A stretch of DNA of 64,000 nt from NCBI GenBank assembly GCA_963718615.1, contig OY970368.1:1184001-1248000 (forward strand), given 5' to 3'. The first letter of the stretch is position 1. Each line of letters opens with the position of its first letter. Origin of the DNA: an uncultured cyanobacterium. Lineage in GTDB: Bacteria; Cyanobacteriota; Cyanobacteriia; PCC-9006; JAAUQQ01. Made by a program: the position numbers and the translations under genes. Positions 30,109-54,071 of the stretch are shown piece after piece. Below the pieces are notes generated by a model, which saw only the letters and a program-made list of their open reading frames with translations, was not told where the DNA came from and searched no databases.

Positions 30109-30847
30109 TTAGGAGAGTAATTCGCTAAGATTGCGGATCACAATGTCTGCACCATTTTTTGTCAGCGCACTGGCGTCTCCATTATGGGCCACGCCAACGA
30201 CCCAGCCAAACTCACCCTTTCGTCCAGCCTGAACGCCTGCGATCGCATCCTCCACCACGACAGAACGCTTCGCCACAGCCCCCACCTGCTTAGCCGCTTC
30301 AAGAAACGTATCGGGCTCTGGTTTACCGGCTAAATGCAGCTGTTCTGCCCGAACACCGTCCATAATGCTGTCAAACAACTCAGTCATATCAGCTGCAGAC
30401 CAAAACCATCTTACAGTTGCGACTAGAGGAGACCACCGCTGTTTTCAGGCCCTGCGCTCGAAGATGTTGCACCACTGATACAGCGCCTTCATAGGGCGCA
30501 ATACTTTCTGCTTGCAAAGTCTCTTCAAAATATTTGTCTTTGCGACTGCCCAATTCAATCACGGACATCTCATCGGGATCAGACGTTTTATCGCCATAGG
30601 GCAGATCAATATTTCGGGAGTCTAGAAAACTTTTGATACCCTCATAGCGGGGTTTGCCATCGACATACAGCCGATAGTCCTGCTGAATATCAAATGGCTG
30701 AAAAGGACGACCTGAAGATTGAGAATACTGTTTCAAAAAGTTGTCAAACAGGCGTTTCCAACAAACTGCGTGAATCTTATCCGTGGGTGTTAGCACACCA
30801 TCAAGATCAAAAAGAACAGCATCATACCGAGCCGTTGATATAGCCAT
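30109..30847 (-). pseudogene. Beta-phosphoglucomutase-family HAD hydrolase split by a frameshift near 30400
   Basis: FDLDGVLT...VVSSSRN lies in one frame and GKPEPDTF...VVEDAIAGVQAG in another. Confidence 0.85.
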
Positions 30848-36911: not shown

Positions 36912-37570
36912 ATGAATGCCCAAAAGCTGATAGACACTGCAAAGATGCTGGTTGCTAACAACAAGGGTCTACTGGCAATTGATGAAAGCAAGCCAACCTG
37001 CAACAAACGCTTTGCCAAGTTGGGAATTCCCCAGAATGAGGAATGTCGGCGTGCCTATCGGGAGTTGATTATCACCACAGTCGGTTTGATGGAGGGAGCG
37101 CATACCTTAGAACAGTGCCGCGAGGTGACGGAGGAGGTGTTACGCGATCGGTGTTCAGTCAGTTGGTGGTTCAACAGGTGCTGCTGGAGGGCATGATCCT
37201 GAAACCCAATATGGTGTTGTCGGGATCGAACTGTTCTCAGCAAGCAGCGGTAGATGAAGTTGCTGATGCCACAGTACAATGTCTATTGCGAACGGTTCCC
37301 GCTGCCGTGCCGGGGATTGCATTCCTGTCAGGCGGTCAATCCAGTGAACCGGCCTCGGCGCGTTTGAATGCCATGAATATTCGGTTTAAAGCGCCCTGGG
37401 CATTGACGTTTTCCTTTGGACGCGCCATTCAGCAACCCGCATTAGAACTTTGGCAAGGCAAGGAGGAGAATATATCAGCGGCACAACAGGTGCTGCTACA
37501 TCGAGCCAAGTGTAATGGAGCAGCGCGTCAGAGCAAATACAATACGGCGATGGAAGGGACGAGATCGTGA
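36912..37570 (+). pseudogene. Class I fructose-bisphosphate aldolase pseudogene (internal deletion plus frameshift)
   Basis: KGLLAIDES...RRAYRELIITT joins directly to MEGAHTLEQC; LEGMILKPNMV, FLSGGQS and FSFGRA lie in a second frame. Confidence 0.88.
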
Positions 37571-50969: not shown

Positions 50970-51041
50970 TCGCCAGCGTAGGGACAGGGCAATGCCCTGT
51001 CCCTACATCCGATCCTGCCCTTGATTCCCTTCTTTTTTGCC

Positions 51042-53114
51042 ATGTCTTCCACCCAGAAATTCCTGTTTCAGGTTGCCAAGAAGTATCCGTTTAAGATCTT
51101 TTGGAGTATTCTGTTTGGTTTTTCAGGGGCCATTTTTAACGGGATTGGAACGACATTAATTGTCCCGGTTTTGCTGGCTTTAATTGGACAGGAAGCCTCG
51201 CTTGATGGTGGCCCACCGCTTTTGCAAAAACTCTTGTCACCCTTTGGCGAGATGGATGGAAGTCAGCGCTTGCTGGCAATGACCGCTGTGATTATTGTGC
51301 TGATCTTTCTCAAGAGTTTGACGAACTATCTCAGCACGCTGATTTCAACCACCTTGGGGCGGCGAATTACCTCGGACTTCCAAGAGCAAGGGCTGAAGCT
51401 GATTTTGGATGTGGATATCGATTATCTGACCAAGATGCGCGTTGGGGATTTGATGAACCGTCTGGGCGGCGAAATGAACCGGGCAACCCTTGCCATTACC
51501 GGGGCGGTTCAACTCTTTACGATTATTTCGACGATCTTTGTATTTCTGGTTATTTTAATCGGAATTTCTTGGAAAATCAGCATTGCAACAACATTGCTTT
51601 TTCCTCTTTCAGCGCTGCTGAACCGTGGCCTCATTGTCAATTCTAAGCGATTTAGCAAAGTGCTAACGACCGTTAACAATCAGTATTCGAGTGGATTGGT
51701 GGAACTGATTGGGGGAATGCGACTGGTGCGTTCAACCGGTAATGAAGGTCGAGAATTCAAGCGGTTTACGGACCTGATTGAAAACCGGGAGAAAATCGAT
51801 TTCTTTGCCAAAGCCAATACCGGTTTGATTGGTCCTCTCGCCGAAGTCGTTAATATTGTTTCGCTATTTGCCATTGTCTTTATTAGCCGTGCGATTTTTG
51901 CCAATCAGCTCGATGTTTTGGCAACGATTCTTCCCCTTTACATGATTCTGATCTTCCGGATGCTGCCCTACATCGGTCAGCTCAATTCGGCACGGGATAC
52001 GTTGGCGTTGGCATCTTCTCCCGTTGAAGTGGTTTATGACATGCTGCGGCGGGATAACAAATCGTTTATGCCTAAGGGCGATCGCCTCTATGCCGGTATC
52101 AAAAAGGAAATCCATTTTAAGAACCTTCAATTTGCCTATCCCAGCAGCCAAAATCTCATCCTCAAAGGCATTGATCTAACCCTGCCGAAAGGCACAACCC
52201 TGGCCTTGGTCGGCTCCTCTGGCGCGGGCAAATCGACCCTGGCGGACCTGCTGCCCCGATTCTATGATCCCAACGGCGGTCAGATTTTGCTCGATGGCAT
52301 AGATTTGCGTGAGTACGATATCCAGTCTGTCCGCCGCGCCATGGGGATTGTGAGCCAGGAAACCTTCCTGTTCAACAACACGATTCGCTACAACATTACC
52401 TACGGACGCCCCGAGGCCACTGAAGCTGAAATCCGCTCAGCACTGCAACGGGCTAATGCAGAGGAATTTATCTCAAAAATGCCGGAGGGACTGGAAACCA
52501 AGATTGGCGATCGCGGCGTCATGCTCTCTGGGGGACAACGGCAGCGGTTGGCGATCGCCCGCGCCCTTCTCCAAGACCCAGATATTCTCATCCTCGATGA
52601 AGCCACCAGCGCCCTGGATACGGTGTCTGAACGGCTGGTCCAAGAGGCTCTGGATGAACTGAGCCGCGAACGCACGACGTTAGTCATCGCCCACCGGCTC
52701 TCGACAATCCGCAATGCCGATCAAATCGCAGTCCTCGACCAAGGCCATGTGGTAGAACTCGGAACCCACGACGAGCTCCTGCACCAGGATGGGCTCTACA
52801 GCCAGCTTTGCGCGCTCCAGTTTGCGGAACGTCATGGCGAGGGCTCTCAGAACCAAAGCCCATTATCGGAGACAATAAGCCAGAAAACCACAGTCAGTCA
52901 GCTCTCCTACGAAGCCCGCAGTCGATTGAACTTTATGATTGGTTCCCTGGGTCTATTGGCAGAGGATTTGGTTGAGGATCCGGAGGAGCGGAGTGAGTTA
53001 TCGCGGGAGGCCTATGAGGCGGCGATCGCGGTTCTTAATCAATTGGAATCCTTAGAAAATCAGCGACCACTGACTACATTGATTCCAGGGGCAGAGCAAT
53101 CAATCCAACCGTGA
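51042..53114 (+). CDS. ABC exporter, fused TMD-NBD (HepA/MsbA-like) with a C-terminal extension
   Basis: Six TM segments; GSSGAGKST, LSGGQRQR and DEATSALD. Confidence 0.92.
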   Translation: MSSTQKFLFQVAKKYPFKIFWSILFGFSGAIFNGIGTTLIVPVLLALIGQEASLDGGPPLLQKLLSPFGEMDGSQRLLAMTAVIIVLIFLKSLTNYLSTLISTTLGRRITSDFQEQGLKLILDVDIDYLTKMRVGDLMNRLGGEMNRATLAITGAVQLFTIISTIFVFLVILIGISWKISIATTLLFPLSALLNRGLIVNSKRFSKVLTTVNNQYSSGLVELIGGMRLVRSTGNEGREFKRFTDLIENREKIDFFAKANTGLIGPLAEVVNIVSLFAIVFISRAIFANQLDVLATILPLYMILIFRMLPYIGQLNSARDTLALASSPVEVVYDMLRRDNKSFMPKGDRLYAGIKKEIHFKNLQFAYPSSQNLILKGIDLTLPKGTTLALVGSSGAGKSTLADLLPRFYDPNGGQILLDGIDLREYDIQSVRRAMGIVSQETFLFNNTIRYNITYGRPEATEAEIRSALQRANAEEFISKMPEGLETKIGDRGVMLSGGQRQRLAIARALLQDPDILILDEATSALDTVSERLVQEALDELSRERTTLVIAHRLSTIRNADQIAVLDQGHVVELGTHDELLHQDGLYSQLCALQFAERHGEGSQNQSPLSETISQKTTVSQLSYEARSRLNFMIGSLGLLAEDLVEDPEERSELSREAYEAAIAVLNQLESLENQRPLTTLIPGAEQSIQP

Positions 53115-53391
53115 TTGGGATGGGCTTGCAGGGTAGAACCGGCTTTGGCGGGCAAATCGGTTTAAATCCAGCGATGACCGGCGGACAAAGCGGCTCAACT
53201 GGGCAAATCGGTTCAATGATCCGGATGGGGAGTCCGGGAGACTTAATCGCAGCGATACCACCGGCTACATTGCGAGCGGCGATCGCCCGCTCCTTTGCAG
53301 CTTTAAGAACGTCTCCCCCATGAAAATCCACCGATTCCACAACATTGAGGTCGTTCGCGTGATGCAAATCCGTAATAGAGATCTTTGACAT
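53074..53391 (-). CDS. Putative RiPP/bacteriocin-like precursor: 45-aa leader ending VAGG plus 60-aa Pro/Cys-rich core
   Basis: GGAG SD 7 nt before the ATG; MSKISITDL leader start; repeated P(I/L)CP motifs. Confidence 0.6.
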   Translation of the reverse strand: MSKISITDLHHANDLNVVESVDFHGGDVLKAAKERAIAARNVAGGIAAIKSPGLPIRIIEPICPVEPLCPPVIAGFKPICPPKPVLPCKPIPITVGLIALPLESM

Positions 53392-53421
53392 GGGGCTTCT
53401 CCGAGGATAGAGGGTTGGACT

Positions 53422-53883
53422 TTAGGTTGAATAAACACTCGGATCTGCCGCGTTACGGAGCTGATCCGAAACATAAAAGTTGTTCGTCACCACTTGGGGA
53501 CATCGCAAGCAGGCGTTCTGGCCTTCCTGTTGCCACCAGCGGCAACTGGCCCGAATCTGACAGGGGGGTAGCGTTTCCGTAACGGTCTCAAAACCCTTGA
53601 CAATTCGCTCCGCTAGGCGACACTGAGAACCGTCGTAATGGGCGCAGCCTTTTTCTTCGCAGGTGCTGGCAAACCGAAAAACCTCTGTTGGGGTAACGGG
53701 CTCTGTCGCTGCGAGCAACTCCTCCGTTACGGGTTGCGGGGTTGCCAAATGGACCAAGCGAGGGGTTTCGACTGTTCCGACGATGATGCCAAAGGCGATC
53801 GCCCCTTCCCGATCCGGTTGGGCACTCGGACACAGCGTTTGCGGCTTGGCGGGTGCAGGCTGGGAAGCAGAATCTGAGGCCAT
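53422..53883 (-). CDS. 8-cysteine protein of unknown function
   Basis: CPSA, FRFA, Cx4CxHx5C, PPCxIRxxCRWW and ACLRCPQVVT. Confidence 0.8.
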   Translation of the reverse strand: MASDSASQPAPAKPQTLCPSAQPDREGAIAFGIIVGTVETPRLVHLATPQPVTEELLAATEPVTPTEVFRFASTCEEKGCAHYDGSQCRLAERIVKGFETVTETLPPCQIRASCRWWQQEGQNACLRCPQVVTNNFYVSDQLRNAADPSVYST

Positions 53884-54031
53884 CGGAAGCAGACTCCAAT
53901 CGTTAGAGTTTGATGAAGGTTACGCTGCTGACTCAACTGCCACAACCCTACGGCAGCGCCCCAGGGTCATGTTGCCAAGTTGGCATTTTGTCACGCCAGA
54001 AACGAAGCCCTAGGGGTATGCTGTTCTATTG

Positions 54032-54071
54032 GAAACGCAGCCCTTAGAAACGCAGCCCAGAAACGCAGCCC
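54032..54071 (+). repeat. Three direct copies of gaaacgcagccc upstream of serS
   Basis: Directly visible. Confidence 0.85.

Follow-up and report, generated by a model that had tools for sequence, protein, structure and literature searches.

Leaders that end in a double glycine (GG) are found on small precursor peptides in several described groups of cyanobacterial gene clusters. GG-leader "bacteriocin" clusters were reported by Wang, Fewer and Sivonen in 2011 (PMC3140520). According to the main text of that paper, groups I and II contain a long C39 ATP-binding cassette (ABC) transporter, HlyD and a SurA-like rotamase, and group II is group I with extra modification genes whose function is not known there. 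Eyles et al. in 2021 used HopA1/phosphotransferase pairs to define clusters that resemble those of RiPPs (peptides that are ribosomally synthesized and then carry post-translational modifications), and their text describes a "Family 1A" of 570 peptides from 183 clusters, exclusively from cyanobacteria, with a GG leader and no known product (PMC8153245). Cyanobacterial "type-B" candidate LanA peptides have been described in another paper, whose text calls substrate recognition by LanK-LanY poorly understood (PMC9486802). Nostolanthin, as its preprint presents it, represents an unrelated lanthipeptide family (bioRxiv 10.64898/2026.08.14.744816). In this report, we analyze a two-gene locus on a stretch of 64,000 nucleotides (nt) of contig OY970368.1 from an uncultured cyanobacterium, which is called the window in its full length. 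The locus encodes a 153-residue cysteine-rich protein, named CYS8 here, and a 105-residue peptide with a GG-ended leader. The small GG-leader precursor resembles those of groups I and II as the main text of PMC3140520 describes them; however, in contrast to these groups, the window has no transporter, HlyD or rotamase gene of this kind.

Both genes are on the minus strand and co-oriented, and the open reading frame (ORF) of the peptide lies downstream of that of CYS8 after a gap of 30 bp. An earlier note, which had been made from the letters of the window alone, described this pair accurately: the ORFs, their spacing, the GGAG, the 45-residue leader ending in GG and the eight Cys were all found again. 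The features of the pair are listed below, with positions in the window, strand and basis.

53422 to 53883, minus strand: CYS8, 153-residue cysteine-rich protein (ORF; 494 homologues, with eight Cys and His82 invariant)
53894 to 53897, minus strand: GGAG, likely ribosome-binding site of CYS8 (upstream sequence)
53074 to 53391, minus strand: gene of the 105-residue partner peptide, with its stop codon at 53074 to 53076 (ORF; alignment of 46 family sequences)
53399 to 53402, minus strand: GGAG, likely ribosome-binding site of the peptide gene (30-nt intergenic sequence)
53272 to 53313, minus strand: leader helix segment DVLKAAKERAIAAR, residues 27 to 40 of the peptide (A36 and R40 invariant; element common to all partner types)
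53257 to 53262, minus strand: double glycine G44-G45, the presumed site of leader cleavage (invariant in the family alignment)
53164 to 53184, minus strand: first, weaker copy of the core motif, PPVIAGF, residues 70 to 76 (I73 and G75 invariant in the five closest relatives)
53089 to 53121, minus strand: terminal core motif IPITVGLIALP, residues 91 to 101 (G96 invariant in 46 sequences)

CYS8 of the window has Cys at positions 18, 75, 80, 88, 108, 114, 125 and 128 and His at 45 and 82, arranged as C18; C75-x4-C80-x-H82-x5-C88; C108-x5-C114; C125-x2-C128. Homologues number 494 at E<=1e-3. All eight Cys and His82 are invariant in alignments of 20 and of 89 sequences, and the family signature C...C-x4-C-x-H-x5-C...C-x5-C-RWWQQEG-x3-C-x2-C is present in the window's protein. 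In the larger alignment T37, E67, R70, R111, W116, W117, Q119, E120, G121 and R127 are invariant as well. Eight Cys and one His would be enough ligands for two Zn(II) sites or Fe-S clusters. The protein is acidic, with an isoelectric point of 5.0, and its conserved domain of about 130 residues has no recognizable S-adenosylmethionine (SAM), ATP or flavin motif.

Searches for a described family gave no assignment. CYS8 has no match in Pfam, NCBIfam or PADLOC, none of the 89 family members has a credible Pfam match, and the family profile matches no PDB sequence. An AlphaFold2 model based on the 89 sequences shows a three-stranded sheet followed by short helices (predicted local distance difference test score, pLDDT, 69.4; predicted template modeling score 0.59). 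When this model, whose confidence is moderate, was compared with PDB by using Foldseek, no match was found at E<=0.001. A CxxxCxxC motif is absent among the eight Cys, and no Radical_SAM or SPASM domain was matched in Pfam or NCBIfam. Nor did Pfam detect a LANC_like domain in the 89 members, and no LanC fold was among PDB matches of the moderate model at the same threshold. Neither a family nor a fold match to a PqqD-like RiPP recognition element (RRE) was obtained. ESM Atlas returned only CYS8's own family, which is automatically named "nitrogen fixation protein" and has no Pfam content; some NCBI records label members in the same way.

When one genome per species was scanned for the pattern, CYS8 relatives were detected in 358 genomes, and the best 80 loci were retrieved. 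Counts out of 81 in this report refer to these 80 loci and the window. By the taxonomy of their own records, the 80 loci come from Cyanobacteriota (64), Pseudomonadota (seven), Acidobacteriota (five), Chloroflexota (one) and Thermomicrobiota (one), with two unassigned. A Methylomonas isolate is the source of one proteobacterial locus, and two loci from a "Rhizobium" metagenome-assembled genome look Pseudanabaena-like.

The partner peptide of the window consists of a leader (residues 1 to 45, ending ...NVAGG) and a core of 60 residues. A word-indexed search with this peptide found only four relatives, with leaders that are nearly identical and cores that diverge. A leader profile, applied to six-frame ORFs of the retrieved loci, detected related small ORFs beside CYS8 in Calothrix, Pseudanabaena-like, Microcystis and other loci. 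Clustering of all locus ORFs of at least 80 residues revealed an 80- to 116-residue protein directly upstream of CYS8 in 35 loci, and this protein belongs to the same peptide family. The alignment of 46 peptides, including that of the window, has I6, L9, A36, R40, G44, G45 and G96 as invariant residues (window numbering). A search with this alignment yielded 256 proteins, which are all annotated as hypothetical apart from one labeled "Type 2 lantibiotic". In the last iteration of a hidden Markov model of the family, the window's ORF was found at E=1e-05. To judge by these homologues and the 494 of CYS8, both genes are real and not chance ORFs.

A GG occurs after position 25 in all 72 family peptides. 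Leaders of type A, to which the window's belongs, follow M-x-K-I-S-I-S-D-L ... [AS]A[VA]xRA[IL]xAR..GG, and leaders of type B, mostly from Nostocales, have xEINDLIxxAVxNAVxRR and then the canonical LSDEEAxxVAGG. The helix element A[VI]x[RN]A[ILV]xxR is found in type A, in type B, and in acidobacterial, Coleofasciculus and fused forms. Canonical double-glycine leaders have the consensus L(-12) S(-11) x x E(-8) L(-7) before the GG. The window's leader ends in E-R-A-I-A-A-R-N-V-A-G-G, in which the GG is accompanied by a hydrophobic residue at -4, as in leaders of the double-glycine type. At E<=1 the 105-residue peptide has no match to the Nif11 models PF07862 and TIGR03798 or to the NHLP model TIGR03793. 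By these profile comparisons, the leader is a distinct, unnamed family. In the CYS8 tree, all 45 type-B partners are in one clade of 51 rows (Shimodaira-Hasegawa-like approximate likelihood ratio test, 90), and the window's CYS8 is on a branch by itself near the base of the cyanobacterial sequences; the correspondence between tree and leader type is only descriptive, as relatives share labels.

Two other groups of sequences resemble the window's leader. When 1.84 billion representatives were searched with a first profile of the peptide, three further true relatives (P0130, P0132 and P0133) were all that emerged; the top matches were long RTX-like repeat proteins that were hit via a VESVQFADGTVWDAAAVKAAVR repeat and were treated as a compositional or repeat artefact. 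The leader profile matches giant RTX/haemolysin-type repeat proteins (P0126, of 4421 residues, P0127, P0128 and P0131), with up to 17 repeats of ...VVESVQFADGTVWDAAAVKAAVR..GS that resemble VVESVDFHGGDVLKAAKERAIAAR..GG of the window's leader across about 28 residues, probably as a repeat or compositional effect. The second group is another GG-leader family with short hydrophobic cores, which occurs in tandem arrays in Nostocales loci (L056:9638-10623 and L047:10524-11279), 3 to 5 kb from CYS8. Its sequence M-A-N-I-A-I-S-N-L-R-P-A-G-A-D-L-F...GG weakly matches the class IIb bacteriocin model TIGR03949, and its N terminus resembles the M-S-K-I-S-I-T-D-L of the window.

Whether CYS8 homologues lie beside precursor-like ORFs had been set beforehand as a test of linkage, and the outcome is positive. 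An iterated peptide profile (three iterations) was applied to 20,167 six-frame ORFs of the 80 loci and the window and gave 76 hits, of which 37 are seeds picked at CYS8-adjacent positions, so that about half are independent of seeding. Every hit is within 300 bp of a CYS8 gene or overlaps it, and the hits cover 67 of the 81 loci. At least ten loci missed by the profile have, when inspected by eye, a divergent partner beside CYS8 with the same helix and Gly-centered strand (L004, L009, L024, L034, L035, L037, L040, L043, L068 and L073; examples are Pyrinomonadaceae, Chloroflexia and Microcoleus loci). In these partners the helix xxA[VI]xRA[LV]xxR is followed by P-[IV]-x-x-G-I-I-[AYW], and some have no GG. 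Two loci (L041 and L077) carry two CYS8 genes each, every copy with its own adjoining partner peptide. The positions of the two genes, adjacent in nearly all loci examined, firmly show that CYS8 and the peptide form a conserved module.

Not all partners are short. Some are 160 to 230 residues long with the motif in the middle, and the Coleofasciculus partner is a 160- to 210-residue protein that contains ELGEAIERAVDRALGRR. In four Coleofasciculus loci (L014, L021, L023 and L052) this protein, with its leader-type helix in mid-protein, precedes CYS8, and CYS8 is followed by a large protein with pentapeptide repeats and a C-terminal DUF1963 domain. In addition, 24 long forms of CYS8, in Pleurocapsales-type sequences, begin with an invariant A..QRAI.VR.KASFGNSSSGYEFGGWK, which a variable linker connects to the CYS8 domain. 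AlphaFold2 predicts a helix at residues 8 to 38 of the fused form (block-mean pLDDT 75 to 87 over residues 11 to 30) and a disordered linker, and hhalign aligned this N terminus with the leader helix of the free peptides, although weakly (P=0.0024, probability 12%). In L006 and L061 double-NHLP precursors directly precede fused forms. Such a fusion points to the helix as a binding partner of CYS8 and not merely a disposable leader.

The wider surroundings of CYS8 were compared for genes within 6 kb on either side. The following gene types recur.

30 of 81 loci: APH-family kinase (weak match to the LxmK model NF038156, 96 bits vs. a cutoff of 315)
29 of 81 loci: HopA1-domain protein
29 of 81 loci: Nif11-leader precursors (46 genes)
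27 of 81 loci: radical SAM/SPASM enzyme (above cutoff for TIGR04103, "nif11-class peptide radical SAM maturase 3")
27 of 81 loci: PPIC-type rotamase-like protein, similar to peptidyl-prolyl isomerases (PPIases) (weak match to TIGR04500)
12 of 81 loci: HlyD
13 of 81 loci: ABC exporter cluster (its representative, L042, has Peptidase_C39)

At least one RiPP-type gene, with the ABC cluster uncounted, is present in 52 of the 81 loci, or about two thirds; kinase/HopA1, radical SAM and C39 ABC genes recur among them, and the linkage to RiPP genes that the earlier note had named as a further check is likewise borne out. The other 29 loci, including the window, have none of these genes, apart from an ABC gene in five; contig ends cut some of these 29 loci. 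Recurring orders are peptide-CYS8-APH-HopA1; peptide-CYS8-Nif11(s)-radical SAM-APH-HopA1; and C39 ABC-HlyD-PPIase-peptide-CYS8; the proteobacterial order is peptide-CYS8-HlyD-C39 ABC. In 13 cases the ORF that follows CYS8 is the APH gene. From this gene content, it is firmly shown that the module of CYS8 and peptide is a frequent component of RiPP-type clusters. The Nif11 precursors of these clusters (for example, L010:4574-4939 and L016:3991-4341, within L002 to L079) have a core motif of their own, [IV]-Q-P-[LM]-Y-G-V-[IV], often in two or three copies with Trp/Pro-rich spacers between them. Their genes adjoin that of the TIGR04103 radical SAM/SPASM enzyme, and their motif resembles the P-hydrophobic-G-hydrophobic layout of CYS8 partners.

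The earlier note had stressed the Cys/Pro repeats of the core and treated its Gly-containing segments as secondary. The core of the window indeed contains 15 Pro and four Cys, with two Ser and one Thr, in 60 residues; it is very hydrophobic (grand average of hydropathy 0.88) and includes the units EPICP, EPLCPP, KPICPP, LPCKP, PVIAGF and PITVGLIA. Across the family, however, the conserved part is the Gly-centered hydrophobic motif. Among the 72 family cores, 48 carry its strict form, I-[CKR]-P-P-I-[TI]-[IVL]-G-[LI]-I-[AY]-x-[PD], and 12 of these have it two or three times; it ends a median of nine residues short of the C terminus, and most of the remaining 24 cores have relaxed versions. A short form, PPIxxG[LI]I[AY], is shared by the partners, and the invariant core residue is Gly96. 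The core is therefore not simply hypervariable. A strand of CYS8 itself, FG[VI][VI]xGT, has the same hydrophobic-Gly-hydrophobic pattern when read from the sequence. In contrast, Cys is present in 33 of the 72 cores and absent from 39, and no Cys column is conserved. Cores with Cys are found at loci with a kinase/lyase pair (15 of 37) and without one (18 of 35) with no difference, and the Ser/Thr content does not differ between the two kinds of loci either.

We favor, at a probability of about 0.5, the reading that CYS8 is a peptide-specific recognition and escort subunit for its cognate GG-leader peptide. The peptide would consist of an amphipathic leader helix, A-x-x-R-A-I-x-x-R, and a Pro-rich, very hydrophobic core that ends in a PPIxxG[LI]I[AY]xP strand. 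CYS8 would be a dedicated small metalloprotein with two structural or redox metal sites. It would bind the peptide in the cytoplasm via the leader helix and the Gly-centered strand, and would keep the aggregation-prone hydrophobic core soluble. Where tailoring enzymes are encoded (an LxmK-like kinase with a HopA1 lyase, or a PPIase-like protein), CYS8 would hand the core to them, and the peptide would then be cut after the GG and exported by a C39-type ABC/HlyD system, which in the window's genome would be encoded outside the window. Binding, metal content, cleavage and export are predictions of this scheme. We favor it because the conserved elements of the partners, a helix and a strand, look like a binding epitope, because natural fusions exist and partner sizes vary, and because CYS8 is small and without cofactor motifs.

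Several observations weigh against this reading. The seven invariant polar residues of CYS8 outside the presumed metal ligands (T37, E67, R70, R111, Q119, E120 and R127) favor catalysis, and so does the locus of one precursor gene and one protein gene, which is the classic layout of precursor and maturase. Canonical GG leaders, and those of the type-B relatives, have an acidic LSxxE module that is missing from the window's leader, and no C39 exporter is encoded within the 64 kb. Moreover, the confidence of the CYS8 model is moderate, and the survey covers only the best 80 of 358 matching genomes.

Catalysis is the basis of the principal alternative, which we regard as possible though tentative: CYS8 would be a class-defining maturase, a new kind of small Fe-S or Zn metalloenzyme that installs a novel modification at the PPIxxG[LI]I[AY] motif, for example by redox or backbone chemistry at or beside the invariant Gly, and the pair in the window would be the minimal, two-gene form of a new RiPP class. 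The conserved core motif has the look of a modification site, and the invariance of the eight Cys, His82 and the polar residues named above is in keeping with this role. The solitary loci without an accessory RiPP gene also agree with such a class, as do the Nif11 precursors of the same clusters, whose QP[LM]YGV[IV] motifs come with an adjoining radical SAM/SPASM maturase and suggest a logic of one precursor family and one maturase. However, the domain of about 130 residues has neither a recognizable cofactor motif nor a family match; no chemistry can be inferred from the sequence; a leader-like helix is naturally fused to CYS8; and partners of 160 to 230 residues with the motif in mid-protein fit binding better than turnover. 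If CYS8 were nevertheless such an enzyme, the new RiPP class would extend over at least 358 species genomes, mostly of cyanobacteria but also of Acidobacteriota, Chloroflexota and methanotrophic Proteobacteria.

The remaining explanations differ in what they make of the cysteines and of the neighboring genes. The earlier note had offered an exported metal-binding peptide, with PICPP-type Cys as ligands and CYS8 as its metallochaperone. The four Cys of the window's core do lie in repeated P-x-C-P units, and KPICPP repeats recur in relatives (L005, L008, L019, L029 and L062), but we disfavor this idea and hold it to be most improbable, because fewer than half of the cores have any Cys and the invariant residue is a Gly. 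The same distribution disfavors lanthionine as the common chemistry of the family, and with it a very unlikely role of CYS8 as a Zn-dependent cyclase in a pathway like that of class V lanthipeptides, in which the kinase and HopA1 protein would dehydrate Ser/Thr and CYS8 would add core Cys to form thioether rings. This role would account for the recurring order precursor-CYS8-APH-HopA1, for the APH genes that directly follow CYS8, for the weak LxmK match of the APH protein and for the Cys, Ser and Thr of the window's core. Zn with Cys/His ligands is also used by LanC, as the text of PMC9486802 describes. Yet 39 cores have no Cys at all, the Cys and Ser/Thr contents of cores do not differ between loci with and without the kinase/lyase pair, CYS8 matches neither the LanC family nor its fold, and no such kinase or lyase is present in the window. 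Finally, the pair might not belong to a natural-product system: a secreted structural or amyloid-like peptide could have CYS8 as, for example, its regulator, its immunity factor or a factor against its aggregation, and the adjacency to RiPP genes could reflect shared use of the GG export route only. A Gly-centered, beta-branched strand flanked by prolines and of high hydrophobicity may resemble aggregation-prone segments, 29 loci have no tailoring gene, and the Coleofasciculus and Microcoleus partners are longer proteins. We nonetheless consider this explanation unlikely, as CYS8 is tightly placed at the head of kinase/lyase and Nif11/radical SAM operons and, as an acidic protein, has no match to a DNA-binding family.

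Gene content identifies the window as cyanobacterial (Psb27, PBS-lyase HEAT repeats and a HepA-like ABC protein). The flanks of the pair are housekeeping or unrelated genes: serS, an M50 protease, endonuclease III, a GT4 glycosyltransferase and a convergent ABC exporter. Among 67 non-overlapping ORFs across the 64 kb, Pfam scans detected no Peptidase_C39, HlyD, rotamase, radical SAM or HopA1 domain, and an APH-type kinase/HopA1 lyase pair of the class V kind is absent from the window. The statement of the earlier note that neither a RiPP enzyme nor a C39 exporter is encoded here holds, and its proposal that the GG leader is processed in trans is consistent with this absence. The convergent neighbor is as follows.

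51021 to 53114, plus strand: 697-residue MsbA/HepA-like ABC exporter (ABC_membrane and ABC_tran domains, no Peptidase_C39)

The best NCBIfam match of this exporter is HepA_fam_ABC (547.6 bits, below the cutoff of 725), and a C-terminal extension of about 95 residues follows its ATPase domain. Its gene adjoins that of the GT4 glycosyltransferase and shares its last 41 bp with the 3' end of the peptide gene, which is on the opposite strand. We considered it as the exporter of the peptide; this is unlikely in view of its HepA/MsbA-like type, the missing C39 domain and its place beside a glycosyltransferase, and it is probably outside the system of CYS8 and peptide.

Scans for promoters and terminators and with Rfam around the gene pair found nothing above background. 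The intergenic region between serS and CYS8 contains four direct copies of GGCTGCGTTTC within 72 nt (53999 to 54070, minus strand), about 115 to 190 nt upstream of the CYS8 start. Three copies are exact and one has a single mismatch; the three are the only exact copies in the window, and with one mismatch allowed there are six vs. 1.7 expected. A palindrome, TGCCAA-N-TTGGCA, comes after the repeats at 53973 to 53985. A regulator of the gene pair or of serS may use these repeats as an operator array. Elsewhere in the window, a HAD-family hydrolase is apparently divided between two adjacent ORFs, of 92 and 152 residues (30112 to 30847, minus strand), and the match of a 175-residue ORF (37043 to 37567, plus strand) to class I fructose-bisphosphate aldolase is confined to the C-terminal part of the latter (profile positions 195 to 335 of 349); these may be frameshifted or truncated genes.

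The earlier note had presented the system as a candidate new one. The cluster context had already been catalogued bioinformatically (PMC3140520, PMC8153245), whereas the Cys protein is not mentioned in those texts. More specifically, the main text of PMC3140520 describes neither an eight-Cys protein nor PPIxxGLIA peptides, which its supplementary Tables S2 and S3 may list, and the texts of PMC8153245 and PMC9486802 mention neither the Cys protein nor the PPIxxGLIA motif, which may be in their supplements. Full-text literature searches for TIGR04103, CRWWQQEG, RWWQQEGK, PPIIVGLIA and PPITLGIIY found no paper, and broader searches yielded only the general surveys of clusters that are cited here. 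The pair provides a new handle for genome mining of RiPPs: Pfam and NCBIfam have no model for CYS8, which nearly always comes with an unnamed precursor family of its own. It heads many uncharacterized cyanobacterial kinase/HopA1 and Nif11/radical SAM clusters. The two-gene locus of the window is the simplest form in which to test an escort or a maturase function, and catalysis by CYS8 would mean new enzyme chemistry on a conserved motif.

Among known proteins, LanC has Cys/His metal ligands of the kind presumed for CYS8, and CYS8 is located beside dehydration enzymes in many loci. However, LanC has about 400 residues, whereas CYS8 has about 150, matches neither the LanC family nor its fold and has substrate cores that mostly lack Cys. 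Like precursors with Nif11 and NHLP leaders (TIGR03798, TIGR03793), CYS8 partners are cyanobacterial and have GG-ended leaders, and Nif11 and double-NHLP precursors occur in CYS8 loci as described above, although the 105-residue peptide matches neither model. RREs of the PqqD-like kind have no similarity to CYS8 in sequence or fold, and they are not known to have Cys/His metal sites. The likeness to them is one of role: a small dedicated protein beside the precursor recognizes an element of the leader and binds the peptide as an added beta-strand, which is what we would predict for CYS8.

The described clusters closest to the related loci are those of Wang et al. and Eyles et al. In L020, L031, L036 and L038 a long C39-type ABC exporter, HlyD and a SurA-like rotamase stand in a row directly before peptide and CYS8, as in groups I and II in the main text of PMC3140520. 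The likeness to Family 1A and the type-B LanA peptides is that CYS8 and the peptide head an operon with an APH-family kinase and a HopA1-domain protein at 29 to 30 of the 81 loci. By the text description in PMC8153245, on which this comparison is based, Family 1A also has conserved leaders with GG and cores without conserved Ser, Thr or Cys, and it may be either the family of CYS8 partners or that of the co-located M-A-N-I-A-I-S-N-L GG peptides. HopA1/phosphotransferase clusters are related to LxmK/LxmY of class V lanthipeptides, a kinase and lyase that the window lacks. If CYS8 is an escort, a dedicated leader-binding metalloprotein would be a testable answer to the question of substrate recognition, as posed in the text of PMC9486802, for the cyanobacterial branch of these class-V-type kinase/lyase pairs.

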